The notes: generated by a model not told the origin, from the letters alone. Counted from the first letter of the stretch, positions 46-58,792 are shown. The stretch: DNA of 63,714 nucleotides from Actinomycetes bacterium (GCA_021787035.1 JAJYMM010000097.1:1-63714), one strand, 5' to 3'. A program made the numbers and translations.

Positions 46-150
46 ACGACCGGCCCGCAGACGACCGGCCCGCAGACGACCGGCCCGCAGACGACCGGCC
101 CGCAGATGACCGGCCCGCAGATGACCGGCCCGCAGATGACCTGTCGGCAC
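46..150. repeat. 15-bp tandem repeat, about 6.5 copies (ACGACCGGCCCGCAG x4, ATGACCGGCCCGCAG x3); it spans the menH start region
   Basis: Direct reading of positions 46-150. The last three units each carry an in-frame ATG. Translation gives TTGPQ/MTGPQ pentapeptides. Confidence 0.9.
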
Positions 151-906
151 CCGCTCACACTCGTGGCCCTCCACGGGTTCACCCAGACCGGGGCATCATG
201 GGGACCCCTAGCCACCCGTCTTGGCGGCTCCTATCGGCTGCTAGCCCCCGACGCCCCAGGCCATGGCCGAGCGTCAGCCCTGCGGGCAGGCCTGTGGGAA
301 ACCGCCGACCTTCTCGACGGCACGGTCGTCGCCGATGGGGGCAGCGTCGCGGGCTGGGTCGGCTATTCGATGGGCGGCCGGATGGCGCTCCATGTTGCCC
401 TTGCGCACCCCCGAGCCGTACCCAAGTTGGCGCTCATCAGCACCTCACCTGGCATCGAGGACGACATCGAACGGGAAGCCCGGCACGCGGCCGACGAAGC
501 GCTGGCTAAGCGCATCGAGGAGGGAGGCCCCCAAGGCCTCGGTCGCTTCCTCGCCGACTGGCTCGCCCAGCCGCTCTTCGCCACCCTCCCGCGCGAGCGG
601 GCCGGCCTGGACGCGCGCCTTTCCAATTCGCCTGCTGGCCTCGCCTCTAGCCTTCGTCTCGCCGGCGCCGGCGCGCAGGAGCCCCTGTGGGGCCGCCTAC
701 CTGAGCTTGGCCGGCGCAAGCTGCCGGTACTGCTCCTCGCCGGCGAGCTGGACCGCAAGTACTGCGAACTGGCATCTGCCACCGCAGAGGCGATCGGTCC
801 AACCGCAACGGTGCGCATCGTCTCCGGTGCTGGCCACGCCTGTCACCTGGAACGTCCCGACGAGGTAGCCGGCGAGCTCGCGCGCTTCTTCGACGCCGGC
901 GACTAG
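106..906 (+). CDS. menH: 2-succinyl-6-hydroxy-2,4-cyclohexadiene-1-carboxylate synthase (alpha/beta hydrolase, MenH)
   Basis: ORF 43..906 has an HGF...GYSMGG nucleophile elbow in an alpha/beta-hydrolase fold, next to menA and menE. The start is ambiguous: TTG at 43, or ATG at 106, 121 or 136 inside the repeat. Confidence 0.75.
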   Translation: MTGPQMTGPQMTCRHPLTLVALHGFTQTGASWGPLATRLGGSYRLLAPDAPGHGRASALRAGLWETADLLDGTVVADGGSVAGWVGYSMGGRMALHVALAHPRAVPKLALISTSPGIEDDIEREARHAADEALAKRIEEGGPQGLGRFLADWLAQPLFATLPRERAGLDARLSNSPAGLASSLRLAGAGAQEPLWGRLPELGRRKLPVLLLAGELDRKYCELASATAEAIGPTATVRIVSGAGHACHLERPDEVAGELARFFDAGD

Positions 907-915
907 GGCCTCGCC

Positions 916-1818
916 CTACAGGGCCAGCCCAGCGGCAAGGAGTAGCCCGAGCACGAGCTGGGCCTGCCCCGTCGCCCCGAGGACCTCCACGAGCGAGCGG
1001 CCCTCGGCGCCAGCAAGGACCTTGCGCGCCGGCACCCATGACACTGCGAGCGACCCGAGACCGAGGAGCGCCCACGGGCGCATGGCAGCCACGGGCACCA
1101 CGAGCAGGGCGGCGCCAGCGACGCAGCCGCAGTACAACCATCTTGTCCGGGCGGCGCCCAGCCGCACGGCCAGCGTTCGCTTGCCGGAGGCAGCGTCACC
1201 AGCTATGTCCCGCAGGTTGTTCACGACTAGGAGGGCGACAGCGACGAGCCCAACGGGTAGAGCGGCCAGCACCTCGAGCGTCGTCACCTTTCCCGTCTGA
1301 ACATAGGCCGTCCCAACGGTCGCGACGAGGCCAAAGAACACGAACACCGAGAGCTCGCCCAACCCCGTGTACCCGTACGGTTTAGGCCCACCCGTGTAAA
1401 GCCAGGCGGCGGCAACGCTGGCAAGGCCCACAGCTACGAGCCACCACCCGGCGACAGCAGCCAGCGACAGCCCCGCGGCCCCGGCGACAGAAAATGCGAG
1501 CAGCGCCGCCCTCTTGACAGCATCTGGGGTGGCCAGCCCTGATGCCACGAGCCTCACCGGCCCAACCCTGGCGGCATCCGTGCCCCTCACCCCGTCGCTG
1601 TAGTCGTTCGCATAATTGACGCCCACTTGAAGCGCCAGGGACACGACACCCGCCAGCAGCGCCCTCCACCAGATGGCGTCGCCATGGGCAGCAGCAGCGC
1701 CCGTGCCGACGAGTACCGGAACGAGCGACGCGGGTAGCGTCCGGGGGCGAGCCCCGGCAACCCAGGGGTACCTGACCGACTTGGCTCGTGACTGGTCGAC
1801 CACGGCGGCCGACCTTAC
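916..1818 (-). CDS. menA: 1,4-dihydroxy-2-naphthoate octaprenyltransferase (UbiA family), MenA
   Basis: The C-terminal ~300 aa of ORF 916..2451 has a UbiA prenyltransferase fold (NDxxD-like motif, multiple TMs). The N-terminal 210 aa of the ORF is an implausible GC-rich extension. The start is placed at the GTG near ...VRSAAVVDQ. Confidence 0.7.
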   Translation of the reverse strand, partial: VRSAAVVDQSRAKSVRYPWVAGARPRTLPASLVPVLVGTGAAAAHGDAIWWRALLAGVVSLALQVGVNYANDYSDGVRGTDAARVGPVRLVASGLATPDAVKRAALLAFSVAGAAGLSLAAVAGWWLVAVGLASVAAAWLYTGGPKPYGYTGLGELSVFVFFGLVATVGTAYVQTGKVTTLEVLAALPVGLVAVALLVVNNLRDIAGDAASGKRTLAVRLGAARTRWLYCGCVAGAALLVVPVAAMRPWALLGLGSLAVSWVPARKVLAGAEGRSLVEVLGATGQAQLVLGLLLAAGLAL

Positions 1819-2022
1819 CCTCACAATGGCGCCGCTCGCGGGCAAGGCGTTCAGCGCGCCGTCGCGCGACCGGCCCTGACACTCGCCGGCGTGACCGCTC
1901 GCCGTCGCGAAGCGGGCCTGCAGCCTCGCCGGCCCCAGTCGTGGGCTCCTGATCGCGCGCCGATATCCGCCCGGGGCCCTCGAGGCGGGCCAACCGAGGG
2001 CGGTCTCGGCCAGACTGAACCC

Positions 2023-3174: not shown

Positions 3175-3181
3175 GTGCCAG

Positions 3182-4723: not shown

Positions 4724-5647
4724 GTGCAAGGGGTATCGCTAACTGCGCTTTGGACGGCCGCCCAGCGCGCCCAGGAGTCCGCGAGACCAGACCGCCTCGT
4801 CGAGGACCCGCTTGCGGAGACCTTGGCCGGGCCTGAGGGGGCCCGGATCATGGAGATACTGCAAGCAGGCGAACCACCGAGCCCGACCGTTGCCATCCGC
4901 ACCCGTTTTTTCGACGATCGCATCGTGGACCGGACCTCCGCCGGCACCGGGCTAGAGGGCACCGGGCTAGAGGGCACCGGGCGAGAAGGCACCGGGCGAG
5001 AAGGCCCCGCCCGGCAGGTCGTGCTCCTCGGGGCGGGCATGGACAGCCGTGCGTTCCGTCTGGGCCTCCTCCCGCACGTAACAGTCTTCGAGCTCGACCA
5101 CCCAGAGCTGCTCCGGCTGAAGGACCAAAGGTTGGAGCGCGCTGGCGCCAAGCCAACCTGCGAGCGCCGGAGCGTCCCCTGCGACCTCGGCGGCGCCTGG
5201 GTGGTCGAGCTGTTATCTTCGGGCTTCTCGACCAAAGAAGCTTCTGTTTTCGTCGCCGAAGGCCTCCTCATGTACCTGGACGAACGCGAAGTTGACGGGC
5301 TGCTCGACGTGCTCGGCACTCTCTCGGTACCGGGCAGTACCCTGCTCGCCGACGTGTGCGGCCGGTCTCTCAGGTACTCGCCCTACATGACAGAGTGGTT
5401 CGCTGGCCTCGAACGTGCCGGGATGGCCTGGCGTTTCGCGACCGACGAGCCAGAAGTGCTCCTAGCAGAGCACGGCTGGGAAGCAGACGTTGTGCGCTAT
5501 GGCGACGAACGCGCCCACTTCGGGCGCTGGCCTGGGCCCAAGGTGGACCGGAGCAACCTGGCCTGGCCGCAAAGCTACCTGGTAGAAGGCACACGGGCTC
5601 ACGTCGAGCCGGGGAAGGCGCAGGCGGGCCAGCCCGTCTTGGGCTGA
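4724..5647 (+). CDS. SAM-dependent methyltransferase, LCM / Rv0726c-like family
   Basis: Motifs IRTRFFDD...QVVLLGAGMDSRAFRL, characteristic of the mycobacterial putative O-methyltransferase family (PF04072). Confidence 0.75.
   Translation: MQGVSLTALWTAAQRAQESARPDRLVEDPLAETLAGPEGARIMEILQAGEPPSPTVAIRTRFFDDRIVDRTSAGTGLEGTGLEGTGREGTGREGPARQVVLLGAGMDSRAFRLGLLPHVTVFELDHPELLRLKDQRLERAGAKPTCERRSVPCDLGGAWVVELLSSGFSTKEASVFVAEGLLMYLDEREVDGLLDVLGTLSVPGSTLLADVCGRSLRYSPYMTEWFAGLERAGMAWRFATDEPEVLLAEHGWEADVVRYGDERAHFGRWPGPKVDRSNLAWPQSYLVEGTRAHVEPGKAQAGQPVLG
4943..5002. repeat. 15-bp tandem repeat x4 inside the methyltransferase CDS (GGCACCGGGCTAGAG x2, GGCACCGGGCGAGAA x2)
   Basis: Direct reading. It encodes the in-frame sequence GTGLEGTGLEGTGREGTGREG. 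Confidence 0.9.
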
Positions 5648-9247: not shown

Positions 9248-12200
9248 TTAGCCCGCTGGTACCTCTCTGTTCCATAGGCACGAAGCCCCGAGCAACACTC
9301 GGAGCTCTGCCAGCAGCCCAGGCGACGCCTCCACGTTGAACTCAGCAGGTAGCCGCACCACCTTCTCCCCGACATGGAGCAGGACCGGCGACCCCCCGGG
9401 GTGCTCACCTAACAGCTCCCTCAGGCGCGACAGGCGGGCGTCGTCCATGGCGCCGGCTGGGACGGTCACACGGAGGGGCTCGGCTCCGTCCAGGGAAAGC
9501 TGCGGGCGCTTAAGCTCCGAGCAGATCAGCTTGGGGGCCTCGTCTCGCTGGTCGAGCCTCCCTTTCACGAAAACCACGGCATCGTCGCCCAACAGGTGCC
9601 CGACGTCAGACATCGTGCGAGGGAAGACGAAGACCTCGATCGAGCTCTCAAGGTCCTCGAGCACGAAGGTCGCCATCAGTTCTCCCCGCTTGGTGTACTT
9701 GCGGGTCAGCCCCGTTACCACGCCACCGACCCACGGGCCGCCCTTCCAGCCTCCTCCCCCGCCGAAGCCCCTGTCCTGCCCAACACTGGCCTGCCCAAGA
9801 CTGGCCTGCCCAAGACTGGCCTGCCCAACATTGGCCTGCCCAACATTGGCCTGCCCAACATTGGCCTGCCCAACACTGGCCTGCCCGCCGGGCCCGCCGT
9901 CGGCCCCCTCGCGGCTACCCGCCTCGTCGCGCAGGTCGAGGATCGTGCAGTCGGCGTGGCGGCGCAGTGCCGCCTCCGCCCCGACGAGGGGGTGGTCGCT
10001 CACATAGAGGCCGAGCATCTCCTTCTCGAACGCGAGCTTCGTGTGCTTGTCAAACTCCATGTCCGGGATGGGCACCCTGGCGTCGTCGAAGCCACCATCG
10101 GCGCCGTCGGCACCACCGAAGAGGCTGAGGACGCCTTGGTCGGCCTCCTTCCGGCGAGCGAGGGTGCGGTCTACGACCTGCTCGAACACGAGGCAAAGCC
10201 CCTGGCGGGGATGCCCGAGGGAATCGAAGGCGCCCGCTTTCACGAGCGACTCGACCGTGCGTTTGTTGAGCACCATCGGGTCCACCCGCCGGCAGAAATC
10301 GTAGAAGTCCGTGAAGGGGCCGCCCGCGGACCGCTCGGCCAGGATCCGCTCGACCAGGCCCTCGCCCACATTGCGGATCGCCGACAGCCCAAAGGGGATG
10401 GCGCCGGCGCTCCTGGAGCCGCCTGCGCCCTCTACGGCCGGCGCACCGGCCTCGGTACCCTTGCACGTGGCGGAGGCAGGGCTAGCCCGCACCGCGGTGA
10501 AGTCAGAGGCCGACAGGTTGACGTCGGGCACGAGGACCTCGACCCCCATCTGGCGGCACTCGGCCAGGTACACCCCGAGCTTGTCTTTGTCGTCCTTTAC
10601 GCTCGTGAGCAGGGCAGCCATGTACTCGATCGGGTGGTTGGCCTTCAACCAGGCCGTCCAGTAGCAGACGAAGGCGTAGCCGAACGCATGGCTTTTGTTG
10701 AACGCGTAGTCGGCAAAGGGCTCGATCAGGTCGAAGACGGCATTGCCGAGCTCAGTCCCGTAGCCGGTCTTCTCGCAGCCAGCGACGAACTTCTCGCGCT
10801 CCTTGGCCATGATCTCCCGGACCTTCTTGCCCGCAGCCTTGCGGAGGGTATCGGCCTCTGCGAGCGAATAGCCAGCTATACGCTGCGCCACCCGCATCAT
10901 CGACTCCTGGTAGACCATGAGGCCGTAGGTGTCCGCTAGGACCTCGGCCATGTCGGGGTGGAGGGAGGCCACGGGCTTGCGGCCGTTTTTCCTGTCCGCA
11001 AAGTCGTAGTGCATGTTGGCCGCCATCGGCCCGGGGCGGTAAAGAGCATTGACGGCCGCTACGTCGTCGATGCATGTGGGGCCGACCGCACGGAGGAGCG
11101 CCCGCATGTTGACGCCTTCCATCTGGAACACCCCTACCGTGTCCCCCTGCCGGAAGAGCTCGAAGGTGGCCTCGTCGTCGAAGGGCAGCGCGTCGAGGTC
11201 CGGCCGGTCCCCTGTGTTGGCCTCCACGAGGTCGAGCGTGCGCTCGATCACCGAGAGGTTGCGCAGGCCGAGGAAGTCCATCTTCAAGAGGCCCAGCTCC
11301 TCGACCCCGTGCATCTCGTACTGGGTCACGATCGGCGCGTCCTCCGGGCGCCCACCAGGCTCGGGTTTGCGCTGGATAGGCATGTGCTCGGTGAGCGGGT
11401 CGGAGGAGATCACGACGGCGGCGGCGTGGATCCCGTCCTGGCGGCGCAGGCCCTCGAGGCCCATGGCCACGTCGACCACCCTCTTCACGTCCGGGTCGCT
11501 CGCGTACAGCTCGCGCAGTTCGAAGGCGACCTTGTAGCCATCGGAGTACTTGGGGTCCTCTTTGAAGCAGGCCCAAAGAGGGGTGTCGCGCCCCATCACG
11601 AGCGGGGGCATCAGCTTGGCGACCCGGTCGCCCATGCCGTAGGGGTAACCGAGCACCCTGGCTGCGTCCCTCACGGCGGCCCGCGCCTTTATCGTCGAGA
11701 AGGTAACTATCTGCGCGACGTGGTCCCAACCCCAGCGCTCGGACGCGTAGCGGATCATCTCGCCCCGGTAGCGCTCGTCGAAGTCCATGTCGATGTCGGG
11801 CATCTGCCTGCGACCAGGGTTCAAGAACCTCTCGAATATGAGGTCGTAGCTCAGGGGGTCGATGGCCACGATGTGAAGGCAGTACGCCACGCAGCTGCCC
11901 GCCGCGCTCCCCCGGCCCGGCCCGACCCTGATCCCGTTTTCCCTTGCGTGGCGGATCAGGTCCCACACGACGAGGAAGTAGTCCGAAAACCCCATCGAAG
12001 CTATTACACCGAGCTCGTAGTCGAGCCGCTCCGCCACTTTGGCCGGCACCGGCGACCCGTAGCGCTCGGCCGCGCCCTCGTAGGTCAGGTGCCGCAGGTA
12101 CTCATCGGAACCCGAAAAGCCCTCCGGCAGTGGGAAAGCAGGCAACTTGGGTTTGCCCAGCTCGATCGTGACGCCTGCTCGTTCGGCAACCCAAAGCGTG

Positions 12201-15145: not shown

Positions 15146-15209
15146 CTCATCTGGCAGGCCTCTCATCTGGCAGGCCTCTCATCTGGCAGGCCTCTCATCT
15201 GGCAGGCCC
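15146..15209. repeat. 16-bp tandem repeat x4 (CTCATCTGGCAGGCCT), intergenic, immediately after the MFS stop
   Basis: Direct reading. Confidence 0.9.
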
Positions 15210-15507: not shown

Positions 15508-15993
15508 TCAGTGCGGCCGTTCGCCGGCGAGGAGGTCGAGCGCGTGCGGGATCAAGTCTGTCAGGACAGCGAGGGACTCGAGCGCTCCCTTGGGTGAGCC
15601 CGGGAGGTTGACGACCAGAGCACGGCCGCGCACGCCGGCGATACCCCTGGACAGCGGCGCGAGCGGACCGGACCGGCGCATCAGTTCGCCGAACCCAGGG
15701 GCCGCCCGTTCGATGACCTCCGCAGTGCCCTCGGGCGTTTGGTCGCGCGGGCCGAAACCGGTGCCACCAGTCGTAACGATGAGACCAGCGAAGCCCGACG
15801 CCAGCCGCACGAGGTCGCCGGCCACCGATGCCACTCCGTCGGCAGTGAGCGCCTGCTCGATGACCTCGAACCCCGACCCTTCGAGGGCCCGCGCCACCGC
15901 CGGCCCGCTCTCGTCCTCGCGCTCGCCGCGCATGGCCGAGTCCGACACGGTGAGCACCTTGGCCTGATAGGTCACCTTGGCCTGATAGGTCAC
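15508..15993 (-). CDS. mogA: molybdenum cofactor biosynthesis protein MogA/MoaB
   Basis: Motifs GGTGFGPRD...PGFGE...LSRG.AG.RG..LV.NLPGSP. A GTG start with a GGAG Shine-Dalgarno (SD) sequence sits at 15993. An 18-bp direct repeat encoding VTYQAK twice lies at the 5' end. Confidence 0.75.
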   Translation of the reverse strand: MTYQAKVTYQAKVLTVSDSAMRGEREDESGPAVARALEGSGFEVIEQALTADGVASVAGDLVRLASGFAGLIVTTGGTGFGPRDQTPEGTAEVIERAAPGFGELMRRSGPLAPLSRGIAGVRGRALVVNLPGSPKGALESLAVLTDLIPHALDLLAGERPH

Positions 15994-16063
15994 CTTCGCT
16001 CCCCGGTCGGCCCCAGCGGGGCGCTCATATGAATACCAGTCATATCTCGGCCAGCTTCGCAGC

Positions 16064-16732: not shown

Positions 16733-16813
16733 CGATCCTGGGCGACCCGCCGCAACCGGGTAAGGCAGTCGTGGCACCCGGCCGAAGCTAGTACGAACCC
16801 GCCGCCACCGGGG

Positions 16814-16866
16814 CCATCGGAGGGGGCCATCGGAGGGGGCCAAGGGAGGGGGCCAATGGAGGGGGC
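16814..16866. repeat. 13-bp tandem repeat x4 (CCATCGGAGGGGG and variants) upstream of rpe
   Basis: Direct reading; period 13. Confidence 0.85.
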
Positions 16867-16939: not shown

Positions 16940-17677
16940 ATGGCAGGTGAGGGCCACCCAACCAATGACCCTGGCGTGACCAATGACCCTGGCGTGACCA
17001 ATGTCTTGCTTATCGACGACGATGCCCGCATCAGGGCATCGCTCGGGATGCTCCTGCGCAGGGACGGCTACGCCGTCTCAGAGGCCGCAAGCGGCGAGGA
17101 AGGGCTCCATGCCTTCGCTGAAGAGGGCCCCGACGTGGTCCTCGTGGACCTCCTCCTCCCAGACATGGACGGCTACGAGGTGACACGCGAGCTGCGTCGG
17201 GCAAGCAACGTCCCCGTCATCGTCATATCGGCAAGGACGGGCACCGACGACATCGTGCTCGGCCTCGAGGCGGGCGCCGACGACTACCTGACCAAGCCGG
17301 TGATGCCGCGCGAACTGCCCGCGCGCATCCGCGCGCTCATGCGCCGGGCCCAGCTGTCCGCCTCGGGTGGCACGAGCCTCACTCTCGGCGACCTCGAGAT
17401 CCTCCCCCACGCTGGCGTCGTCAAGAAGGCCGGCGTACCAGTGGCGCTCACCCGGACAGAGCTTCGCCTCCTCTGCGAGCTCGCATCCCAGCCCGGCTGG
17501 GTCCTTTCACGGGCACAGCTCCTGGAACGCGTCTGGGGTTACGACTACTTCGGCGACACCCGCCTTGTCGACGTCCACGTCGGGCGCCTCCGTACGAAGA
17601 TCGAGACCGACCCCACCAACCCCGCGCTCATCCTCACGATCAGAGGGCTCGGCTACAAGCTCGAACCGCCCCAATGA
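16940..17677 (+). CDS. mtrA: OmpR-family response regulator, MtrA ortholog
   Basis: REC domain plus a winged helix. The C-terminus LLERVWGYDYFGDTRLVDVHVGRLRTKIETDPTNPALILTIRGLGYK closely matches MtrA. An 18-bp repeat at the 5' end encodes TNDPGV twice. Confidence 0.85.
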   Translation: MAGEGHPTNDPGVTNDPGVTNVLLIDDDARIRASLGMLLRRDGYAVSEAASGEEGLHAFAEEGPDVVLVDLLLPDMDGYEVTRELRRASNVPVIVISARTGTDDIVLGLEAGADDYLTKPVMPRELPARIRALMRRAQLSASGGTSLTLGDLEILPHAGVVKKAGVPVALTRTELRLLCELASQPGWVLSRAQLLERVWGYDYFGDTRLVDVHVGRLRTKIETDPTNPALILTIRGLGYKLEPPQ

Positions 17678-23842: not shown

Positions 23843-23878
23843 CGAGCTGGCAAGTAGTCCGGTACGTGGGGGGCGCCC

Positions 23879-24026
23879 GCACCTCCTGCGCCAATCCCCC
23901 TGCGCAATCCCCCTGCGCAATCCTCCGGCGCCCCCAACGGCGGCCCCCTTTAGGCTCACCCCAGGTATCTTGATGGGCCCAGCTCAAATCACCGCCAGCT
24001 CAGAGCACCGCCAGCTCAGAGCACCG
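23879..24026. repeat. two short tandem arrays (about 13-14 bp x3 at 23884-23925; 16 bp x2.5 at 23984-24026)
   Basis: Direct reading of CTGCGCAATCCCCC-type units and CACCGCCAGCTCAGAG units. Confidence 0.8.
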
Positions 24027-24182
24027 CTAGTAGCCCGGTGCCCTCGTCGTAGTCGTGTGACCGCTGCCGCTACCCGAACCACCACAAGCGGCCGTCGCAG
24101 ACGCAAGGGTCGCTAGGGCCAACCCGGCCACTAGCCAGCGCCCCAGCCTCCGCAAAAGGCCACGTACCATAAAGCTCGTCAT
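24027..24182 (-). CDS. small Gly/Ser/Thr-rich lipoprotein (51 aa), not in the ORF track
   Basis: The ATG at 24182 is preceded by GAGGAG. The peptide is MTSFMVRGLLRRLGRWLVAGLALATLASATAACGGSGSGSGHTTTTRAPGY. Signal peptide plus lipobox-like AAC. Confidence 0.35.
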   Translation of the reverse strand: MTSFMVRGLLRRLGRWLVAGLALATLASATAACGGSGSGSGHTTTTRAPGY

Positions 24183-30598: not shown

Positions 30599-31459
30599 CT
30601 ACGCGGCCGCGGCCGGCTGGACTACGAAACTCCCTTCCATGCCTTCTTGGGCATGGCCGGGGACGGGACAGAAGTAGCTGTAGGTGCCCGCCGACGACGC
30701 TGTGAAGCTGAGCATCCCGGCGTGCATCCCGGCAGAGGTCTTCTCACCCAGGAACCAAAGGGCAGCCCCGGGGAAGGCCGGCCGCGCAGTCATCATCGGC
30801 ATCCAAGAACTGCCGGCACCCCGGGCCGACAGGACTAAGCCGTGGGCCATGTCGTCGTCGGCGTTCACCAGCTCGATAGAAACATGCGCTCCTTCCGCCA
30901 CGACGACCGTCGGGTCCGTCAACCGGGCGATCTTGAAGTTCTCGGCCGGCATCGACGGGCTCGCCAGCACGGCGAAAGAGACGTCCTGGCCCGAGAAGGT
31001 TACGGTGTTGGTGGAGCGGTCCACAGTTGCGCCCGAGGGTACCTCCGCGCCCAACTGGGCCGCTTGGGCGGGGCTCACGCGAGGTCCGGGGGCGCCGGCG
31101 AAGAGCCTGCCCATGACCTTGCCCATGTTGTCGCTGCCTTGCGTGAACGAACCAGGAAGAGAACCGCCCATCATCCAGCCCGGCGCGCCACTGCCGCCCA
31201 TCATCCAGGAGTAGCCGCTGGCGCCCATCATCCAGGAGTAGCCGCCCCCCATCATCCCCCCGTACCCTGCGCTCTGCTGGGGGGCGTACCGCTTGGCGAC
31301 GGCGAGGTAATAGGCATAACTGGCCTTGGCGCTCGCCGGTGTCAACGTCTGGGCGGGGGCGCCCGGGCCGCCCGAGAGGCCGATGCCGAGGCCAGCCCCG
31401 AGGCCGCCGGCAGCCAATACGAGAGCTGTAGCGAGGACCGTCAGTTGCTTGCGGTTCAT
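30599..31459 (-). CDS. secreted cupredoxin (type-1 copper, azurin-like C-x4-H-x4-M site) with a Met-rich MMGG region
   Basis: Signal peptide from MNRKQLTVLATALVLAAGG, with an SD before the ATG at 31459. Four (G/W)MMGG motifs are present. The C-terminal YFCPVPGHAQEGMEG is a copper site. ORF 30599..31600. Confidence 0.7.
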   Translation of the reverse strand: MNRKQLTVLATALVLAAGGLGAGLGIGLSGGPGAPAQTLTPASAKASYAYYLAVAKRYAPQQSAGYGGMMGGGYSWMMGASGYSWMMGGSGAPGWMMGGSLPGSFTQGSDNMGKVMGRLFAGAPGPRVSPAQAAQLGAEVPSGATVDRSTNTVTFSGQDVSFAVLASPSMPAENFKIARLTDPTVVVAEGAHVSIELVNADDDMAHGLVLSARGAGSSWMPMMTARPAFPGAALWFLGEKTSAGMHAGMLSFTASSAGTYSYFCPVPGHAQEGMEGSFVVQPAAAA

Positions 31460-34671: not shown

Positions 34672-34783
34672 GGCTTCATGAGATCTTCGCAACCGGGGCC
34701 AAAGCTCGCCGCCCCACCCTGCGCCGGCGCCGCTGTAGCTCGTCGGCTTCATGAGATCTTCGCAACCGGGGCCAAAGCTCGCG
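34672..34783. promoter_or_regulatory. two direct copies of a 39-bp element (CTTCATGAGATCTTCGCAACCGGGGCCAAAGCTCGC) 73 bp apart, upstream of the ICMT-like gene
   Basis: Direct reading. A third, degenerate copy (CTTCACGAGATCTTCGCACGGGCAGCC) lies at 35536-35569, upstream of the next gene. Confidence 0.5.
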
Positions 34784-36185: not shown

Positions 36186-37301
36186 ATGCCACAACTATTG
36201 ACGGGCACGACGGTGATCGCCGCCTTTTTCGCCGGTGTGGTGGCGCTTTTCGCGCCTTGCTGCATCTCTGTGATGTTGCCCGCCTATCTCGCCACCGGGG
36301 TGCAGCGCCGGAGCGGCCTCGTGGCGATGACGTTCGTCTTCGCAGCTGGTGTGGCGACGGTCATCCTGCCGATCGCCTTCGGCGTCACCGCCCTCAGCCG
36401 TTTGATAAACGAGTACCACCCGATCGTGTACACCGTCATGGCCGTCGTCATGGCCGCCCTGGGGACCTTCATGCTGCTCGGACATCGTGTCTCCATGCCG
36501 ATGCCCGGGTTCCGGGCGCGACAGGGCCAAGGCGCGGGGCGCGCTTACGTGCTCGGTGTCTTCTCGGGAGTGGCCACGGCATGCTGCGCGCCCGTGCTGG
36601 CCGGCGCTATCGTCCTGGCCGGCGCCAGTGCCAACTTCGTCACCTCCCTCGGGGTGGGCGCGGCCTACGTCTTCGGGATGGTGGCGCCGCTATTTGTCGT
36701 CGCGCTGGCCTGGGACGGGCGCAAGCTCGGCCAGGCCCGCTGGTTGCGAGCCAAGGCGGTAAAGCTCTCGATCTTCGGCCGGGCCCGCTACGTCCCTGTG
36801 ACAAACCTGGCGGGGGGCCTGCTGCTCGTCGCCATAGCAGTCATTACCGGTATAACCGCAGTCACCGGGCCGGCCAGCCCCACCAGCGGCTGGCAGCTGC
36901 GGATGGCCACCACCCTCCAACACACGGCCCATGTCCTCACGACGGGTGCCGGCCACGTCCCCGGCTGGGTGACGGCGCTAGGCCTCTTAGCCGTGCTCGC
37001 CTTGCTGGCCCGCATGGCCGTGCACCAAGCCGCGGCTCGCGCGCCCAGGGGACCAGAAGCAGACGAGAGGGCAGAAGCAGACGAGAGGGCAGAAGCAGAC
37101 GAGAGGGCAGAAGCAGACGAGAGGGCAGAAGCAGACGAGAGGGCAGAAGCAGACGAGAGGGCAGAAGCAGACGCCGAGCCCCCAGCCGGAGCCGCACCTC
37201 ATCGGGTCGCAGGCCACGGCTGCTGTGCCCACGATGCTGCCACGACCGGCAGCGCTGTGCTCACCTCCGCTCCTACCGCCACGCCCGTCTCGCGTTCATA
37301 A
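36186..37301 (+). CDS. CcdA/DsbD_2-family transmembrane thiol-disulfide transporter with a C-terminal (AEADER)6 tail
   Basis: TM1 reads FAPCCISVMLP and TM4 reads ACCAPVLAG. The C-terminal tail carries HGCCAHD. Confidence 0.7.
   Translation: MPQLLTGTTVIAAFFAGVVALFAPCCISVMLPAYLATGVQRRSGLVAMTFVFAAGVATVILPIAFGVTALSRLINEYHPIVYTVMAVVMAALGTFMLLGHRVSMPMPGFRARQGQGAGRAYVLGVFSGVATACCAPVLAGAIVLAGASANFVTSLGVGAAYVFGMVAPLFVVALAWDGRKLGQARWLRAKAVKLSIFGRARYVPVTNLAGGLLLVAIAVITGITAVTGPASPTSGWQLRMATTLQHTAHVLTTGAGHVPGWVTALGLLAVLALLARMAVHQAAARAPRGPEADERAEADERAEADERAEADERAEADERAEADERAEADAEPPAGAAPHRVAGHGCCAHDAATTGSAVLTSAPTATPVSRS
37062..37175. repeat. 18-bp tandem repeat x6 (GCAGAAGCAGACGAGAGG)
   Basis: Direct reading. 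It encodes the in-frame sequence (AEADER)6. Confidence 0.9.
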
Positions 37302-38499: not shown

Positions 38500-38600
38500 C
38501 CCTGCGGGCCGTTACTGGCGCTTACGTGGTAACCACGAGGGAGCGGCCCGCCGGCACGGCCTGCCCGCCGGCCAAGCCGCACGCCTGGGCGTCCCGAGCA
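38500..38600 (+). ncRNA. putative ZTP (pfl-motif) riboswitch in the glyA leader
   Basis: GGGCCGUUACUGGCG at 38506-38520 against consensus GGGUCGUGACUGGCG. The downstream pseudoknot element CGCCUGGGCG lies at 38582-38591, about 45 nt before the glyA ATG. glyA is a classic ZTP regulon member. Confidence 0.5.
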
Positions 38601-40927: not shown

Positions 40928-40975
40928 GTGGCACCACGAAGGGTGGCCCCACGAAGGGTGGCCCCACGGAGGTCA
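40928..40975. repeat. 15-bp tandem repeat x~3 (ACGAAGGGTGGCCCC)
   Basis: Direct reading; intergenic. Confidence 0.85.
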
Positions 40976-42162: not shown

Positions 42163-44043
42163 ATGGCAGCGGGCGCACTCGTTCACGACGAGACCTGCGA
42201 CGGGGGCGCTGGCGGGGCACAGGGATCCCCACCCCCGCAACCTCGCCCGCGCCTGGTGGCCACAAAAGCCGGGAAATGGCCAGCTTCATTACATGCCTGC
42301 ACGCTGCTCGCATCGCTCGCCTTTTGGTCTTGGACCGACAGGGCGCTGTGGTTCTTCGGTGACGAATGGGACTTCTTGGTAAGGCGCGGCCTCTCCTTTC
42401 CCCCGGGCAGCCCTCGGAGCATCTGGTACCCCCACAACGAGCACTGGTCAACACTGCCGATCCTGCTCTGGCGCGCGCTCTACAGCATCTTCCACCTGAA
42501 CAGCTACTGGCCGTACCTGGCCCCGCTCCTTCTCGCAGGCACGGTCGTCGCCCACCTGAGCTGGAGGCTGGCCCTGCGGGCCGGGGCCGACCCCTGGGTT
42601 GCGACTTTTGCAGCCGGGCTCTTGGCTTTCCTTGGAGCGGGCGCGTCCGACATGACCTCTGCCTTCCAGGTGACGTTCGTGGGTTCCGTGCTCTTCGGGC
42701 TGCTGTCAATGTTGCTCCTCGACCCCGCGACGCCACCGAAGGGGCGGACCGACTTTAGGGCGAGAGATGCCATCGCCTCCCTTTCACTGCTCGGCGCGCT
42801 CATGTGCTCGACGGTGGGTGACGCCATGGTTGCCGGCACGGCCCTCCTCCTCTTCGCGAGAAGACCGTGGCGCCGGGCACTCGCAGTCCTTGCGCTACCC
42901 GTGGTTTCGTACGCGATCTGGTTTGCCTTCTTGGGCCGCCCCTCGATTAGCGCGCCAAGGGCCCATTTTGGGCTTAGGACCTTCACGACGCTGCCCTCAT
43001 ACGTGCTCTTCGGCCTAGCCGGAGCCATCGGGCAAAGTGCCGACGACACCAAGGCGGGCGTCGTCGTCTTGACCTGCCTGGCAGCATGGGCCGCCTGGCA
43101 GCTCCGCTCGCTCTGGCAGCACTCACCCGGCATACTCGGCCTCTGCGCCGCGGCTGTCGCTTTTTACGTCATGGCCGCAGCTGGCCGCGACCAGACGGCC
43201 GGAGCGTTCACGGTCGTGTCCCGCTACGTGTGGGTCGCGATGGCCATACTCGTCCCCGTCATCGCGAAGGCCCTTTCCCCACGGTCATTCGGCGCAGGTG
43301 GCCCGGCGTTTCGCGTCCCAGTTTGCGCTCTATTGACGGCCGCAACGCTCGGCAACCTCGGCCAGGCCAGCCGATGGGCGACCGCCCAGGCAGGGGAACG
43401 GACCACGCTCGAACACCAGCTCGTCGCCGTCGGTCGACTTCTCGGCGCCGGCGTGCACGACGTGTCGGGGCCACGCACGTCACCAATCCAGCTCTACCCC
43501 GCCTTGGCGGTCGCGAGCATCGAGCACCTCGAACACGCCCACCTCTTGCCGGCGGGCGAGCCACGCCCCCTCGTGACCTCCCAAGCACGCGAGCTGCTGG
43601 CTCTGGGCACGTGGGACGGGACCAAGACGTCGCTCACGGCGAGGCGCCTTTACCTCGGGAGCTTCACCCTACTTCGAGCCATGAGCGCCGTCGTCTCGCC
43701 CGCCGGCGCCGGCTGCATCTCCTTCGCGCCCAAGTTTCCCTTGCCGCGGGTACAAATCTGGTTGATGGCGCCCCGCTCCGGGGGCGCATCGCTCGAGCTG
43801 GCCGCTCCTCCCGCCTCGCAGGGGCTCACCAATTTCGTGGCTGCGACCCTCGTGCCAACGTCGGGGCGCGCGCCGGCGCCGGTGGAGCTGGCCGTGCCGG
43901 TTTCAGGCCGCGGTTACCTGAGCGACAACGCCGCCGCCACCCTTGTCGAGCTCTCCTGGCGCGTCGGAACGCCCCTCCTGGCCTGCGGGTTGCGGGCCCC
44001 AGGCAGGGACAGCCACCAGCTCGGGACGTCACAACGCCCCTAG
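42163..44043 (+). CDS. large polytopic membrane protein (>=12 TMS), possibly a GT-C-type glycosyltransferase
   Basis: ATG at 42163 immediately after the ydcF stop. The first loop contains FFGDEWDF. The last 20 codons lie inside a 65-bp tandem repeat. Confidence 0.5.
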   Translation: MAAGALVHDETCDGGAGGAQGSPPPQPRPRLVATKAGKWPASLHACTLLASLAFWSWTDRALWFFGDEWDFLVRRGLSFPPGSPRSIWYPHNEHWSTLPILLWRALYSIFHLNSYWPYLAPLLLAGTVVAHLSWRLALRAGADPWVATFAAGLLAFLGAGASDMTSAFQVTFVGSVLFGLLSMLLLDPATPPKGRTDFRARDAIASLSLLGALMCSTVGDAMVAGTALLLFARRPWRRALAVLALPVVSYAIWFAFLGRPSISAPRAHFGLRTFTTLPSYVLFGLAGAIGQSADDTKAGVVVLTCLAAWAAWQLRSLWQHSPGILGLCAAAVAFYVMAAAGRDQTAGAFTVVSRYVWVAMAILVPVIAKALSPRSFGAGGPAFRVPVCALLTAATLGNLGQASRWATAQAGERTTLEHQLVAVGRLLGAGVHDVSGPRTSPIQLYPALAVASIEHLEHAHLLPAGEPRPLVTSQARELLALGTWDGTKTSLTARRLYLGSFTLLRAMSAVVSPAGAGCISFAPKFPLPRVQIWLMAPRSGGASLELAAPPASQGLTNFVAATLVPTSGRAPAPVELAVPVSGRGYLSDNAAATLVELSWRVGTPLLACGLRAPGRDSHQLGTSQRP

Positions 44044-44155
44044 TGACCTGCGGGTTGAGGGCCCCAGGCACGGACAGCCACCAGCTCGGGACGTCACAAC
44101 GCCCCTAGTGACCTGCGGGTTGAGGGCCCCAGGCAGGGACAGCCACCAGCTAGGG
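43982..44155. repeat. 65-bp tandem repeat x~2.7; each copy carries the TAG stop context
   Basis: Direct reading of CCTGCGGGTTG(C/A)GGGCCCCAGGCA(G/C)GGACAGCCACCAGCTCGGGACGTCACAACGCCCCTAGTGA. Confidence 0.9.
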
Positions 44156-44883: not shown

Positions 44884-45810
44884 ATGAAGGGAAGGCACTT
44901 CGGCGCCCCGCCTCCAACGTCCCGCGCCCCTTGGACGGCTGTGGTGCTGGCCGCCGGCGCGGCTCTCCTCGCCGGCGGCGCCACGGCCGTGGGTGTCGTG
45001 GTAGCCACGCAGCAACACGCGCCCCAGCCGACCCGAGCGCAGGCGGGGGCGCTTGGCCCGCCGGCCCCGCACTTGGTCCCTAGCGCCGCGGCACCAGTTG
45101 GGCGGAGCGAGACGCCGGGGGCTCGGGTCGCCGGCTCGCTCGCGACGGCCGCCATTGACCGTGCCGCTTTGGCCCTCGCAGAGCGAAAGGGCCTGCCCGC
45201 TGGGCCCGCGCTGGCCAGGTCGCGACCGGTAGGCCTCGACATACCCGCGATCGGGGTAGACGCCCACGTGGGCGAGGTCGGCCTCAACGCGAACGGCACC
45301 ATCCAGGTGCCGCCCCTCTTCGCCAAGCCGAGCGAGGCTGCTTGGTACCGCTACTCCCCCACTCCGGGCCAACCCGGCCCGTCGGTGATCGTGGGGCACG
45401 TGGACAATATTTACGGCCCAGCCGTCTTTTTCCGCATAGGCGCGCTCGTGCCTGGCGACCACATAGGAATAGCCCTGGCCGACGGTGATGTGGCGAACTT
45501 CATGGTCGACGGCGTGCGCACATATTCAAAAGCGCACTTCCCCACCGCTGTCGTCTACGGCTCGACCAGCTACCCGGCCCTCCGCCTGATCACATGCGGG
45601 GGGCCTTTCGACTACTCGACGCGCCAGTACTTGGACAACACGGTCGTCTTCGCCTCGCTGGTCACAGCACATGCCTCTCCGAGCGCTGGTGCGGGTGCTG
45701 GTGCTGGTGCTGGTGCTGGTGCTGGTGCGGGTGCGGGTGCGGGTGCGGGTGCGGGCGCGCCGGGTGCTGGTGCTGGTGCAGCCCGAGGCGCTAGCGCGGG
45801 CGCTGGCTAG
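44884..45810 (+). CDS. class F sortase with a C-terminal (Ala-Gly)n tail
   Basis: N-terminal TM, catalytic His (VIVGHVD) and catalytic Cys (LRLITCGG). The tail is encoded by GCTGGT/GCGGGT hexanucleotide repeats at 45663-45800. Confidence 0.75.
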   Translation: MKGRHFGAPPPTSRAPWTAVVLAAGAALLAGGATAVGVVVATQQHAPQPTRAQAGALGPPAPHLVPSAAAPVGRSETPGARVAGSLATAAIDRAALALAERKGLPAGPALARSRPVGLDIPAIGVDAHVGEVGLNANGTIQVPPLFAKPSEAAWYRYSPTPGQPGPSVIVGHVDNIYGPAVFFRIGALVPGDHIGIALADGDVANFMVDGVRTYSKAHFPTAVVYGSTSYPALRLITCGGPFDYSTRQYLDNTVVFASLVTAHASPSAGAGAGAGAGAGAGAGAGAGAGAGAPGAGAGAARGASAGAG

Positions 45811-46029
45811 GACGCGAGCGCACGAACGGGGCCGGCCGGCGCAAGAACGGCCCAAGCCGAGGAAAAACTGCGGCGTCTGGATCCGAAAACGGCACATGGC
45901 TTCGTTTTTTGCGCGAAACCGCGCTGATTTCTACTGGATGTGGAGTTTCCAGACCCACATGTGCCACTTTTTTGTGCGCCACTGGCGTTCAGGAGCTCGC
46001 CGGCACCCGCCGCGACGGCCCGGCCACCT

Positions 46030-46130
46030 CCTCAGCCCACCGTCCTCAGCCCACCGTCCTCCGTCCTCAGCTCACCGTCCTCAGCTCACCGTCCTCAGCT
46101 CATCGTCCTCAGCTCATCGTCGGGAAGTGC
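46030..46130. repeat. 15-bp tandem repeat x~6 (CTCAGCCCACCGTCC / CTCAGCTCACCGTCC / CTCAGCTCATCGTCC), intergenic, just past the mmsA stop
   Basis: Direct reading. Confidence 0.85.
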
Positions 46131-47604: not shown

Positions 47605-47617
47605 GTGATCGCTCCTT

Positions 47618-49513: not shown

Positions 49514-50460
49514 TTGCCATCCCCCCCTCGGCCGGACAAGCGGGGATCGACCGCTTGCCCCTCCCATGAGGACCGCACCCAGTCGTGGGTGGGGTCGAAG
49601 CTGACTGACCATGCACGCTCACCCGGCCCGGCCATCACGTTCAAGTAGTAGAGGTCATAGCCCGGGGCCGCCATCGAGGGCCCATGGTAGCCATGGGGTA
49701 TGAGGACGACATCGCCGCTCCGTACCTCTGCAAGTACGTCAATAGGGCGCTCTGGCGTGCCGTACACGCGCTGGTAGGCGACTCCCTCGGACCCCGAGGG
49801 GCCTTCTGCGACACAGAAGTAGTAGATCTCTTCGAGCTCGGTCTCCCCGGGGCGCTCCTCGTCGTGCTTGTGGGGCGGCCACGACGACCAGTTGCCGCCT
49901 GGGGTAACGACTTCACAGGCGATCAGCCTGTCGGCGTCGAAGGTCCCGGGCATGCAGTAATTGGCGATACGGCGCGAGCTCGAGCCGGCGCCCCGCACTT
50001 CGAGCGCCACCTCGGCACCGCCCCCGCGACGCGGCGACAAGCGACGGCTGGCTTTCGCCCCAGCAAGAGCAAACCGCCCCCCTCCCTCGCTCGAAGCCTC
50101 GACGTCAGAGCCGACAGGTAGGTAGGCAAAATCGCTCGGCCCGGAGAACACGTCCACCCGCCCGGCGAGCTCGTAGCGCTCAGCGCAACACGAGACCCTG
50201 CACCCTCCCTCGAGGGGCAGGAGGATCATCTCGTCACCACCCGTGTTGAAGGCGTGCGACCCACCGGGAGCGAGCGCGAGCACCCTGAGCGACGACCAAG
50301 ACCAGCCGGCGCCCTCCTGGGTCAGCTCGAGCTCCCATGGGCCGGCGGCCATAGAGCCCGCTGGCCGGTGGAGGCTGCCGGTACGTGCGGGCCCTTGCCC
50401 TGCTCGCCCTTGCCCTGCTCGCCCTTGCCCTGCTGGCATACCTTGCCCTGCCACCGTCAT
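49510..50460 (-). CDS. iolB: 5-deoxy-glucuronate isomerase IolB
   Basis: Motifs SSWPPHKHDE...YYLNVMAGP match B. subtilis IolB. The ATG at 50460 forms an ATGA overlap with the iolG stop. A 15-bp x3 repeat (GCCCTTGCCCTGCTC, 50385-50440) encodes GQGRAGQGRAGQG in the N-terminus. Confidence 0.85.
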   Translation of the reverse strand: MTVAGQGMPAGQGRAGQGRAGQGPARTGSLHRPAGSMAAGPWELELTQEGAGWSWSSLRVLALAPGGSHAFNTGGDEMILLPLEGGCRVSCCAERYELAGRVDVFSGPSDFAYLPVGSDVEASSEGGGRFALAGAKASRRLSPRRGGGAEVALEVRGAGSSSRRIANYCMPGTFDADRLIACEVVTPGGNWSSWPPHKHDEERPGETELEEIYYFCVAEGPSGSEGVAYQRVYGTPERPIDVLAEVRSGDVVLIPHGYHGPSMAAPGYDLYYLNVMAGPGERAWSVSFDPTHDWVRSSWEGQAVDPRLSGRGGDGK

Positions 50461-52414: not shown

Positions 52415-52456
52415 TTTGGTCTCGGTCTCCTTCCTGGTTCAGCGGACCACTTCGCC

Positions 52457-56517: not shown

Positions 56518-56535
56518 CTCAGTCCCCTTTCTAGC

Positions 56536-56650
56536 GTCCACAATGTGAACACATGTCCGCCATATAAGCTACCGAACGCTTCTGAGGGTGTCAAGCTAGC
56601 CAGAGGCCTGTGAATCACAATGTGGACATCAGGCTTGCCATGTGGACATC
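56536..56650. promoter_or_regulatory. repeated ATGTGGACATC / GTCCACAATGTG half-sites in the divergent iol transporter/iclR promoter
   Basis: GTCCACAATGTGAACACATGTCC at 56536-56558. CACAATGTGGACATC at 56616-30. CCATGTGGACATC at 56638-50. Confidence 0.5.
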
Positions 56651-56679: not shown

Positions 56680-57489
56680 ATGCCCTCCCCGCGCGTAAAA
56701 GTCCTCGGTAAGGCCGCGAGGCTCCTCGACGTTCTGGCCGTCCAGCCCGACCTGAGCGCGCCGGACCTCGCCCAGCGTCTCGGTGAACCTCGCCCTACTG
56801 TCTACCGCCTCGTCCAGGATCTGGCGGCCCTTGGCTATCTGGAGCAAGGTGCTCGCCGGGGTACATACCGCCTTGGCATGGAGCTGTTCCGCCTCGGCTC
56901 CTTGGTCGGGCTGCGCTTGGACGTTCGTGAAAGAGCGGCACCGGTGATGAACGAGATCCACAAGGCCACCGAGGAGACCGTCTACCTCATGGTCCGCCGC
57001 CACAACGAAGCCGTCTGCATCGACCGGGTCGAGGGCTTGCACATACGCTCGATGGCGCTCCACCTTGGTGGCTCCCTGCCTCTCCACCTCGGTGCCGGTC
57101 CGCGCGTGCTCCTCGCCTACCAACCACGCGAGTACTGGGAGGCGTACCTTTCAGACGTCTCCCTAGAGGCGATCACGCCCCGTTCGCCGACCAGCAAAGC
57201 CGGCATTGTTGCGCTGCTCGAGGAGACACGCCACCTCGGCTTCGCGATCTCCGACGAGGACGTCACGCTCGGGATCAGCTCGGTCGGCGCCCCGATATTC
57301 GACCACACGGGTGCTGTCCATGCCGCGCTCTCCGTCGGCGGGCTGCGCGCCGCCGTACTGGGCGACGGTGGCGAGCGGGCGGCACGCCTGGTCATGGAGG
57401 GGGCAGCCGAGGTCTCGCGCAACATGGGTTACCTCGGCGGAGGAGAGGTGCGCGACTCCGATGAGCGCCAGGAGACCCGAGTCGGCTAA
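56680..57489 (+). CDS. IclR-family transcriptional regulator
   Basis: N-terminal wHTH (LSAPDLAQRLGEPRPTVYRLVQDL) plus a C-terminal IclR effector domain. Confidence 0.85.
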   Translation: MPSPRVKVLGKAARLLDVLAVQPDLSAPDLAQRLGEPRPTVYRLVQDLAALGYLEQGARRGTYRLGMELFRLGSLVGLRLDVRERAAPVMNEIHKATEETVYLMVRRHNEAVCIDRVEGLHIRSMALHLGGSLPLHLGAGPRVLLAYQPREYWEAYLSDVSLEAITPRSPTSKAGIVALLEETRHLGFAISDEDVTLGISSVGAPIFDHTGAVHAALSVGGLRAAVLGDGGERAARLVMEGAAEVSRNMGYLGGGEVRDSDERQETRVG

Positions 57490-57550
57490 GACGTGTGAGA
57501 GGCCGGAGATGCCCCAAGGGGCGGGCCGAAGGGGACGAAAGGAGTAGGGG

Positions 57551-58636
57551 ATGACGGGTGCTTACAAGAGCCCTCTGGAGGAGATGACCGCAACAACGCC
57601 GACGTGCCTTTGGAACGACTCGGCGTCGACCAAGGAGCTTGCCTACGCCCTCGCCAATGGGGCTGTCGGGGCGACATGCAACCCTGTGATCGCGCTCAGC
57701 GTGGTGCGCCAAGAAATCGACCGATGGGCACCCCGCCTCGCGGGGCTCGTGGAGGAGCACCCGACCGAGACGGAGGACGAGGTGGGCTGGCGGCTCGTGG
57801 AAGAGGTCTCCAGCGAAGCGGCCCGCATGCTGGTGCCCGCCTTCGAACAGTCCAAAGGCAGGAACGGTCGCCTTTCCATCCAAACTGACCCGCGCTTTTA
57901 CCGCAACAGCGAAGCCATCCTGCGCCAGGCCGCCCACTTCAACGAGCTGGCACCCAACATGATCGTCAAGATCCCGGCGACCGCCGCAGGCATCCCGGCG
58001 ATAGAGGAGGCCACGTACGCGGGCATAAGCATCAACGCCACGGTTAGCTTCAGCGTCCCCCAGGCGCTGGTCGTGGCCGAGGCGGTCGAACGTGGCCTTG
58101 CCAGGCGGGAGGCTGAAGGCAAAGAAACGCTCAGCATGGGCCCCGTCTGCACGATCATGGTTGGCCGGCTCGACGACTGGTTGAAGGTGGTCGCAGAAAA
58201 GAGCGGCGTCCTTACCGACCCCGGCCACCTCGAGTGGGCCGGAGTGGCCGTGTTCAAAAAGGCATACCAGATCTACGCCGAACGCCACTACCGTACCCGC
58301 CTGCTGTCGGCCGCCTTCCGCAACCACTTTCACTGGAGCGAGCTGATCGGCGGTGACGTGGTCATCTCACCCCCACACTCGTGGCAGGTGCGGATAAACG
58401 CGAGCGACATCGCGGTGGAGCACAGGATCGAGCGGCCGGTGGCGCAAGACGTCGTGGCTGACCTCCTGGCTCGCTTCCCAGACTTCCAGGCAGCCTACGA
58501 ACCAGACGGCATGTCTACAGCCGAGTTCGACAGCTTCGGGCCGACCCGGCGCACGCTGCGCCAGTTCATGGGGGCGAGCACCGACCTTGCCGCCTTGGTC
58601 CGCGACGTGATGACGCCAGACCCCGACAAGCTTTAG
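57551..58636 (+). CDS. tal: transaldolase (long actinobacterial form)
   Basis: Motifs NPV...MIVKIPAT...TVSFSV. It is 361 aa. Confidence 0.85.
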   Translation: MTGAYKSPLEEMTATTPTCLWNDSASTKELAYALANGAVGATCNPVIALSVVRQEIDRWAPRLAGLVEEHPTETEDEVGWRLVEEVSSEAARMLVPAFEQSKGRNGRLSIQTDPRFYRNSEAILRQAAHFNELAPNMIVKIPATAAGIPAIEEATYAGISINATVSFSVPQALVVAEAVERGLARREAEGKETLSMGPVCTIMVGRLDDWLKVVAEKSGVLTDPGHLEWAGVAVFKKAYQIYAERHYRTRLLSAAFRNHFHWSELIGGDVVISPPHSWQVRINASDIAVEHRIERPVAQDVVADLLARFPDFQAAYEPDGMSTAEFDSFGPTRRTLRQFMGASTDLAALVRDVMTPDPDKL

Positions 58637-58681
58637 TCAAACCTGGGGCAGTTCCCCAGGGCCAGTAGCCCGAGCGCCCGC

Positions 58682-58792
58682 CGGGACTAAGGGGCCGGGA
58701 CTAACGGGCCGGGACCAAAGGGCCGGGACCAAAGGGCCGGGACCAAAGGGCCGGGACCAAAGGGCCGGGACCAAAGGGCCGGGACTAACGGC
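58682..58792. repeat. 15-bp tandem repeat x7 (GGGCCGGGACCAAAG), intergenic, abutting the GDPD stop
   Basis: Direct reading. Confidence 0.9.

Follow-up and report, generated by a model that had tools for sequence, protein, structure and literature searches.

The stretch of DNA analysed here, called the window throughout, is the 63,714-bp sequence JAJYMM010000097.1:1-63714 from an Actinomycetes bacterium (GCA_021787035.1). It carries numerous tandem arrays of short units, found in or beside genes that include those for DnaE, MenH, a MogA-type protein, an MtrA-like regulator, RsmB, Fmt, IolB, a sortase and a DsbD/CcdA-like protein; an earlier reading of the sequence alone (the sequence-only reading) had named all of these correctly. 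Our gene map was built from a codon model, gene calls on sister contigs and matches to Pfam and NCBIfam. Analysis with Tandem Repeats Finder (TRF), merging overlapping rows and retaining scores of at least 70, revealed 19 arrays in the window, each formed of head-to-tail copies of a single unit without spacers. The bulk have units of 13–18 bp in 2.3–7.7 copies with 93–100% matches, the exceptions in unit length being one 27-bp, one 65-bp and one 6/12/18-bp repeat. Two further loci, 34672 and 59111, were added by strain comparison, giving 21 in total (Table 1). The sequence-only reading had counted about 19 arrays; TRF recovers every coordinate that it listed and adds one that it missed (31187, 27 bp x 2.7), so that its count was slightly low. 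What it had described as a 39-bp element at 34672 is real and polymorphic, but consists of two 39-bp copies 73 bp apart, present or absent between strains. Fifty dinucleotide-preserving shuffles of the window gave a mean of 0.04 arrays at the same score, with a maximum of 1. In 50-kb baselines, Escherichia coli K-12 had no such array and pRHL1, a high-GC Rhodococcus plasmid, had 2.

The arrays are independent of one another, as had been proposed. No unit recurs elsewhere in the window with one mismatch or fewer, and no 4–6-mer is common to more window arrays than to random segments. Folding with DNA parameters gave z values of -2 to +3.8 relative to random window segments, without a trend, so that the arrays fold no better than random. 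Rfam and ARAGORN (tRNA) scans returned no match at the arrays, and the array ends show no consistent microhomology, the terminal partial units spanning 0–15 nt with no fixed size. We conclude from the unique units, the lack of spacers, shared k-mers and structure, and the negative Rfam and ARAGORN scans that CRISPR, elements of the REP, MITE and MIRU types and structured RNAs are excluded. A CRISPR identity, already set aside by the sequence-only reading for want of spacers, was rejected on the same ground and because no cas domain occurs among the annotated window genes.

The window has a G+C content of 67.5%, and its host is an uncultured Acidimicrobiales bacterium of the actinobacteria. The DnaE gene (9248–13033, minus strand) encodes the replicative polymerase III alpha subunit, scoring 1343 bits against an NCBIfam equivalog cutoff of 1002 and falling under the cutoff of the error-prone-type NCBIfam model. 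Its nearest relatives in a search of 185,579 species genomes are from uncultured Acidimicrobiales and Acidimicrobiaceae metagenome-assembled genomes (MAGs) of bogs and soils, at no more than 78% amino-acid identity, and the window's own species is therefore absent from these representatives. Strains of the species were found by searching for exact protein matches, with five proteins of the window and one of its flank as queries, which gave 46 loci (L081–L110 and L113–L128) from about 20 datasets. The contigs come from ENA MEGAHIT assemblies (k141), JGI metagenomes, four NCBI MAGs and Logan assemblies, and the first ten are 99.1–99.9% identical to the window by BLAST. GCA_027422385.1, GCA_027447985.1, GCA_021831695.1 and GCA_027371995.1 are MAGs of this species.

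Array lengths were compared on each strain contig by anchoring on the unique flanks. Length differences of whole units were found at 14 of the 19 arrays, and at 16 of the 21 loci when 34672 and 59111 are included, so that the copy-number polymorphism for which the sequence-only reading had suggested a search is present; the loci 15955, 23979, 29152, 31187 and 40928 are invariant. The internal variant patterns of the strain alleles are those of gain or loss of adjacent units. When the window is aligned with 15 strain contigs, almost all insertions and deletions longer than 2 bp fall at array loci, and in the comparison with one strain only 5 single-nucleotide differences in 17.7 kb are seen outside the arrays, yet three of seven arrays differ. 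As a relative estimate from the strain comparison, change per array locus is about 1000 times the per-site level of substitution. Loci with more copies have more length alleles (Spearman 0.61, P = 0.004). The arrays at 15146, 46025 and 58680, each lying between convergent genes, are among the most variable and look neutral.

The same arrays, with their unique flanks conserved, were recovered by different assemblers across the datasets. With the exception of 43968 (188 bp), no array is longer than 122 bp, which is below the assembly k-mer (141) and the reads, and repeat collapse is therefore of no concern for these; at 43968, whose length exceeds k = 141, repeats may have collapsed in short-read assemblies. 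We conclude that the arrays are genuine variable-number tandem repeat (VNTR) loci.

The loci are unevenly placed with respect to genes. Nine of the 21 loci are mostly intergenic where 1.5 would be expected (P < 5e-5), and the median distance from an array to a gene end is 72 bp against an expected 253 bp (P = 4.5e-4), which bears out the bias towards gene boundaries reported from the sequence alone. Arrays inside open reading frames (ORFs) are in frame, again as reported, since the periods of all 12 (15, 18, 27 or 6 bp) are divisible by three. The strictly intergenic loci have periods of 16, 13, 13, 16, 15, 65, 14 and 14 bp, together with a 73-bp duplication, and here divisibility by three holds in one case of nine. 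Five of the 12 coding arrays, those of MenH, MogA, the MtrA-like regulator, RsmB and IolB, lie at ambiguous N-termini. The chance that all five would be multiples of three if they were untranslated is about 0.004, and we therefore take them as probably translated, either extending the N-terminus or duplicating the start codon. The arrays encode hydrophilic peptides of low complexity (TTGPQ, GTGLE, GQASV, VTYQAK, TNDPGV, QRGGS, AGSIR, EADERA, AG, AGQGR and PGVDA), and the coding repeats fall between or outside the segments of the protein matched by its family, in a linker, a loop or a tail. Because only in-frame periods persist in genes while any period persists between them, we conclude that the boundary bias was left by purifying selection working on a process indifferent to position, and not by targeting to gene ends.

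Several loci illustrate how the arrays sit in their genes. In the replicative DnaE, a Gly-rich insertion of 30–55 residues between the HhH region and the OB fold is restricted to this sub-clade. Its repeat content differs genome by genome (the window, L001, L002, L003 and L006), and this marks the linker of an essential enzyme as a hot spot of recurrent expansion; no association between the insertion and array density is apparent across the relatives. At the MogA-type gene, the native N-terminus occurs once in the relative L001 (a single MARQAKVLIVSD), and it is this N-terminus that the window array duplicates. Each unit of the array at the N-terminus of the MtrA-like regulator contains an in-frame GTG, and in the single-copy allele of this locus (16961) the unit is flanked by imperfect 7-bp direct repeats, which no other array shows. 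At 34672, the allele with one copy resembles the product of a deletion between the two 39-bp copies. The 34 bp that separate these copies are not explained by a simple 73-bp tandem duplication, the periodic region being 112 bp and not 146 bp long. Each 13-bp unit of the array at 16810–16866 contains a run of four or five G residues, and with 4 to 9 units among strains this array could form a G-quadruplex sized by copy number.

The density of arrays was compared with that in DnaE-centred loci from 80 related species of Acidimicrobiales (1.69 Mb). At a score of at least 70, the window contains 2.98 arrays per 10 kb and the relatives 0.78 pooled (median 0.59). For young arrays, defined by a period of 10–20 bp, at least 2.5 copies and at least 90% matches, the values are 1.88 and 0.19 per 10 kb (12 observed, 1.2 expected; Poisson P = 6.5e-9), and 55 of the 80 relatives have no young array at all. 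The closest relatives, L001, L002 and L006, are intermediate, with three young arrays in a combined 59 kb, from which we conclude that the trait peaks at about the level of the species and is patchy beyond it. Sister contigs extend the picture upstream of the window, where 11 kb hold five further arrays (two in MenF, one in MenD and two intergenic near rplS). The MenF protein of the species, with two perfect 15-bp arrays in its gene, has 531 residues against about 440–500 in most relatives; the MenD array, of 18 bp, is specific to one strain, whose protein has 644 residues against 638–639.

A wider yardstick is provided by Burkholderia pseudomallei, in which 609 arrays of at least four units and at least 30 bp in 7.25 Mb, or 0.86 per 10 kb, were termed a 'preponderance' of tandem repeats (PMC1853098). 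By the same criteria the window holds nine arrays in 63.7 kb, about 1.4 per 10 kb and some 1.6 times the B. pseudomallei density (PMC1853098). The density of the window is thus high: it reaches or exceeds the upper end of what is known, yet stays within the same order as in known bacteria. Near-perfect short-period arrays are about ten times denser than in related Acidimicrobiales, but the statement of the sequence-only reading that density and bias are far beyond what is normal for a bacterial genome is too strong in view of B. pseudomallei. No paper linking Acidimicrobiia with tandem repeats was found in the literature searched.

Table 1. Tandem-repeat loci of the window and upstream regions examined. 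Features are listed without a strand; length alleles are in whole units relative to the window unless stated otherwise.
Position	Unit and copies	Location and encoded repeat	Length alleles among strains
45..141	15 bp x 6.5	N-terminal extension of MenH-like hydrolase ORF, before the first conserved residue (aa 53); TTGPQ repeats	0, +1
4943..5009	15 bp x 4.5	inside LCM/TIGR00027 methyltransferase, interrupting its family match; GTG(L/R)E repeats	0, +1
9771..9886	15 bp x 7.7	replicative DnaE, Gly-rich linker just ahead of OB-fold domain; GQA(S/N)(V/L) repeats	0, -1, -3, -6
15146..15208	16 bp x 3.9	intergenic, begins 2 nt past stop codon of MFS transporter	0, -1, -2
15955..15996	18 bp x 2.3	over start of MogA-type gene; GTG start and five codons duplicated (VTYQAK)	invariant
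16810..16866	13 bp x 4.4	G-rich; divergent intergenic region, rpe / MtrA-like regulator	0, +3, +4, +5; seven sequence alleles
16961..17003	18 bp x 2.4	N-terminus of MtrA-like response regulator; TNDPGV	one copy in L088 and L089
23885..23931	13 bp x 3.5	intergenic, 43 nt past stop of MFS-arylsulfotransferase gene	one unit shorter in 7/7 other samples covering the locus
23979..24027	16 bp x 3.1	same convergent intergenic region as 23885..23931	invariant
28833..28927	15 bp x 6.3	between fmt stop and NusB-like domain of RsmB, in frame in long RsmB ORF; QRGGS repeats	five, -4 to +1
29152..29192	15 bp x 2.7	inside C-terminal domain of Fmt; AGSIR repeats	invariant
31187..31257	27 bp x 2.7 (87% matches)	cupredoxin-like protein, upstream of its domain	invariant
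34672..34783	39-bp segment x 2, 73 bp apart	over ATG of ICMT/PEMT-like gene	both copies in 6/10 strain contigs, one copy in 4/10 (73-bp difference)
37054..37173	18 bp x 6.7, perfect	C-terminal tail of DsbD/CcdA-like membrane protein; EADERA repeats	0, -3
40928..40972	15 bp x 3.0	intergenic, begins 4 nt past stop of MTS-type methyltransferase	invariant
43968..44155	65 bp x 2.9	across stop codon of 626-aa protein without family match	one unit fewer in 11/11 other samples
45685..45791	6/12/18-bp Ala-Gly repeat	C-terminal tail of sortase	-1, -7 (six-bp units)
46025..46121	14 bp x 7.5, imperfect	fills convergent intergenic region, sortase / aldehyde dehydrogenase	five
50391..50434	15 bp x 2.9	between stop of GFO/IDH oxidoreductase and IolB domain, in frame in long IolB ORF; AGQGR repeats	0, -1
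58680..58785	14 bp x 7.6	most of 148-bp convergent spacer, transaldolase / GDPD gene	0, -1, -3, -4
59111..59139	15 bp x 1.9, proto-array	inside GDPD gene; PGVDA repeats	1.9 copies in window, 2.9 in L105, 4.9 in L104 and L121
L114:750-2345, L127:7701-9296, L127:10013-10062		upstream MenF/MenD regions examined	

Other features of the window are of separate interest. Menaquinone genes occupy the left end (1–4360), with menH, a UbiA-type prenyltransferase and an AMP-binding menE-like gene, and menD lies upstream. The region 20061–27618 encodes a sulfotransferase, an MFS-arylsulfotransferase fusion and two more arylsulfotransferase (ASST) paralogues, and its G+C content of 0.64–0.65 is lower than that of the rest of the window. 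At about 25940, and again at about 46160, one base is missing from the window in comparison with several sister contigs; the first of these sites coincides with a longer arylsulfotransferase ORF, of 554 residues against 495 in the sisters. The missing base at about 25940 may be a sequencing error or a real frameshift. A ZMP/ZTP riboswitch (RF01750) at 38501–38597 on the plus strand, scoring 43.1 bits against a gathering score of 39, lies directly 5' of glyA, the gene for serine hydroxymethyltransferase (about 38636–40171), an arrangement that is already known. On the right, an inositol catabolism cluster (47618–56541) comprises iolB, a TPP enzyme, an aldehyde dehydrogenase, GFO/IDH oxidoreductases and a sugar ABC transporter.

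The explanation that we favour, with a probability of roughly 0.8, is that the arrays are ordinary but unusually numerous VNTR loci of the minisatellite type, arising from a slippage-type instability that is elevated or more tolerated in this lineage and filtered by purifying selection. Each array would be born locally by tandem duplication of native sequence, and whole units would then be gained or lost by replication slippage or misalignment. Compared with related species, this Acidimicrobiales bacterium would run the process faster or tolerate it better, and units of about 13–18 bp would be favoured. Purifying selection would allow only in-frame units (15, 18 and 27 bp) to last in genes, in linkers, loops, N-terminal extensions and C-terminal tails, whereas arrays of any period would last in intergenic DNA. 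The sequence-only reading had pointed to either a lineage-specific slippage or duplication process or an active contingency mechanism. The former is likely, given a density about ten times that of relatives; the latter is not needed, as no frame is shifted and the genes are housekeeping ones.

A number of points weigh against this explanation. Slippage as the mechanism and a raised mutation rate as the source of the excess are both inferred, and such a rate is not separable here from relaxed selection. Plain slippage does not predict the narrow range of units, and this range is distinctive: periods of 13–18 bp are found in 16 of 18 high-identity arrays of the window against 41 of 102 in relatives (Fisher P = 1.7e-4), in which periods of 9, 12, 15 and 18 bp dominate. 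The excess is also uneven along the sequence, since the 8.6-kb downstream flank holds a single weak array and the final 4.5 kb or so of the window are nearly free of arrays. The analysis reaches about 84 kb of the species' genome, window and flanks together, and the window was possibly picked for being extreme, so that the P values may be inflated and are to be read as descriptive. Finally, some datasets may share reads, and the strain alleles are thus not all independent samples.

Relaxed selection, in which weak selection through small effective population size or slow growth lets slightly deleterious duplications build up at no higher mutation rate, is a doubtful alternative. The persistence of arrays in essential proteins (DnaE and Fmt), the fixation of the five invariant arrays and the patchy density among relatives are all consistent with it. 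The high polymorphism at 99.9% identity, on the other hand, signifies rapid ongoing change, the strict in-frame rule and the avoidance of domains show that selection is still effective, and the 13–18-bp mode is left without an explanation. That mode, being narrow and lineage-specific, is what recommends a specific signature of replication or repair in place of generic slippage, for example inefficient removal of Okazaki flaps by the Pol I 5' nuclease or a FEN-type enzyme. In yeast rad27 and E. coli polA 5' nuclease (flap-endonuclease) mutants, short duplications arise flanked by microhomology or short direct repeats. By analogy, the 7-bp direct repeats beside the 16961 unit would fit such an origin, as would units without the hairpin propensity that could otherwise drive slippage. 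The terminal partial units, of no consistent length, give no clear microhomology signature, however, and DnaE is the sole repair or replication gene in the sequence available. One Acidimicrobiia species is known to have mismatch repair of the NucS type. The targets of that system are chiefly transitions, and loops of array-unit size are not among its known substrates, so that it is unlikely to be relevant to them (PMC5290159). We regard the signature as a tentative proposal. A wider form of it, equally speculative, is that the 13–18-bp size and the tenfold excess together reflect a heritable peculiarity of replication or repair, such as altered processing of Okazaki flaps or large loops or an unusual DnaE holoenzyme.

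The remaining alternatives are less probable still. Arrays could be kept as contingency loci, by selection for reversible change of expression or protein through copy number, as in phase or antigenic variation, and some are suitably placed at 5' ends and promoters: in the divergent rpe/regulator promoter (16810), at start codons (16961, 15955 and 34672) or just upstream of conserved domains (28833 and 50391), all of them polymorphic except 15955. From their positions, the arrays at 16810 (the sole one in a divergent promoter), 16961, 28833, 50391 and 34672 could affect expression. Nevertheless, the period of every coding array preserves the frame, and the genes are of the housekeeping kind (DnaE, Fmt, RsmB, MenH, MogA, IolB, GDPD and methyltransferases) rather than devoted to surface, restriction-modification or virulence functions, the sortase being the sole cell-surface-related gene among them. 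Moreover, arrays that lie between two convergent genes should have no regulatory effect and yet vary as much or more, and variability tracks copy number as neutral slippage predicts; we therefore consider contingency improbable as a general account. Spurious tandem copies or collapsed repeats produced in assembly or sequencing might be suspected since the sources are metagenome assemblies, and the array at 43968, longer than k, is one unit shorter in every other assembly. As the independent assemblies hold the same arrays with conserved flanks, the arrays other than 43968 are under the k-mer and read lengths, the allelic differences are exact multiples of the unit and the internal variants are structured, and the coding arrays preserve the reading frame, an artefact of this kind, which the sequence-only reading had entertained, is very improbable. 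Least credible of all, and refuted within the window, is an origin as dispersed copies or footprints of REP/MITE or MIRU-like elements, CRISPR remnants or transposon target duplications: intergenic positions near gene ends do recall REP and MIRU, but the units are all different, without shared k-mers beyond chance, spacers, stable structure or an Rfam match.

The window reveals an uncultured, free-living Acidimicrobiales species with a VNTR density at least equal to that of the best-known VNTR-rich bacteria, and with polymorphic peptide repeats inside essential enzymes, including the replicative polymerase. The loci are ready-made strain markers for tracking the population across metagenomes, and they counsel caution, since differences in gene length and start site among such MAGs have trivial causes. 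As a mutational signature, the narrow unit size could, if genome-wide, be tied by comparative genomics to a feature of replication or repair. Should a heritable peculiarity be its source, the species would be a natural 'minisatellite mutator' whose signature could identify the responsible gene by the same means.

A VNTR-rich bacterial genome is of a known kind, and the unit-size signature of the window is one that plain slippage does not explain. Flap-endonuclease mutants (yeast rad27; E. coli polA 5' nuclease) resemble the window in that native sequence is duplicated in short tandem copies and minisatellites are destabilised, but theirs is a phenotype of laboratory mutants, and the resemblance is only a lead. 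The simple-sequence contingency loci of Haemophilus, Neisseria and Campylobacter likewise change copy number by slippage, sometimes at promoters or 5' ends. Their units, of 1–7 bp, shift the frame or the promoter spacing of surface and restriction-modification genes, whereas the coding arrays of the window cannot shift frame and lie in housekeeping genes. The mycobacterial MIRU-VNTR and ETR/QUB loci are also actinobacterial minisatellites, mostly intergenic and with copy number polymorphic between close strains. MIRUs have units of 40–100 bp belonging to a shared dispersed family and occur at far lower density; the units of the window are short and mutually unrelated, and its arrays about ten times denser. 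A further parallel is with the VNTR-rich genome of B. pseudomallei/mallei, a high-GC bacterium of soil, whose many independent arrays mutate by whole units, are over-represented between genes, have coding periods that are mostly multiples of three and reach a comparable density (U'Ren et al. 2007, PMC1853098). In B. pseudomallei, about 70% of arrays are intergenic, the motifs are mostly of 6–9 bp and many arrays are duplicated elsewhere (PMC1853098). The window differs from that genome in its host, an uncultured Acidimicrobiales bacterium, and in its units, which are 13–18 bp long and each unique.

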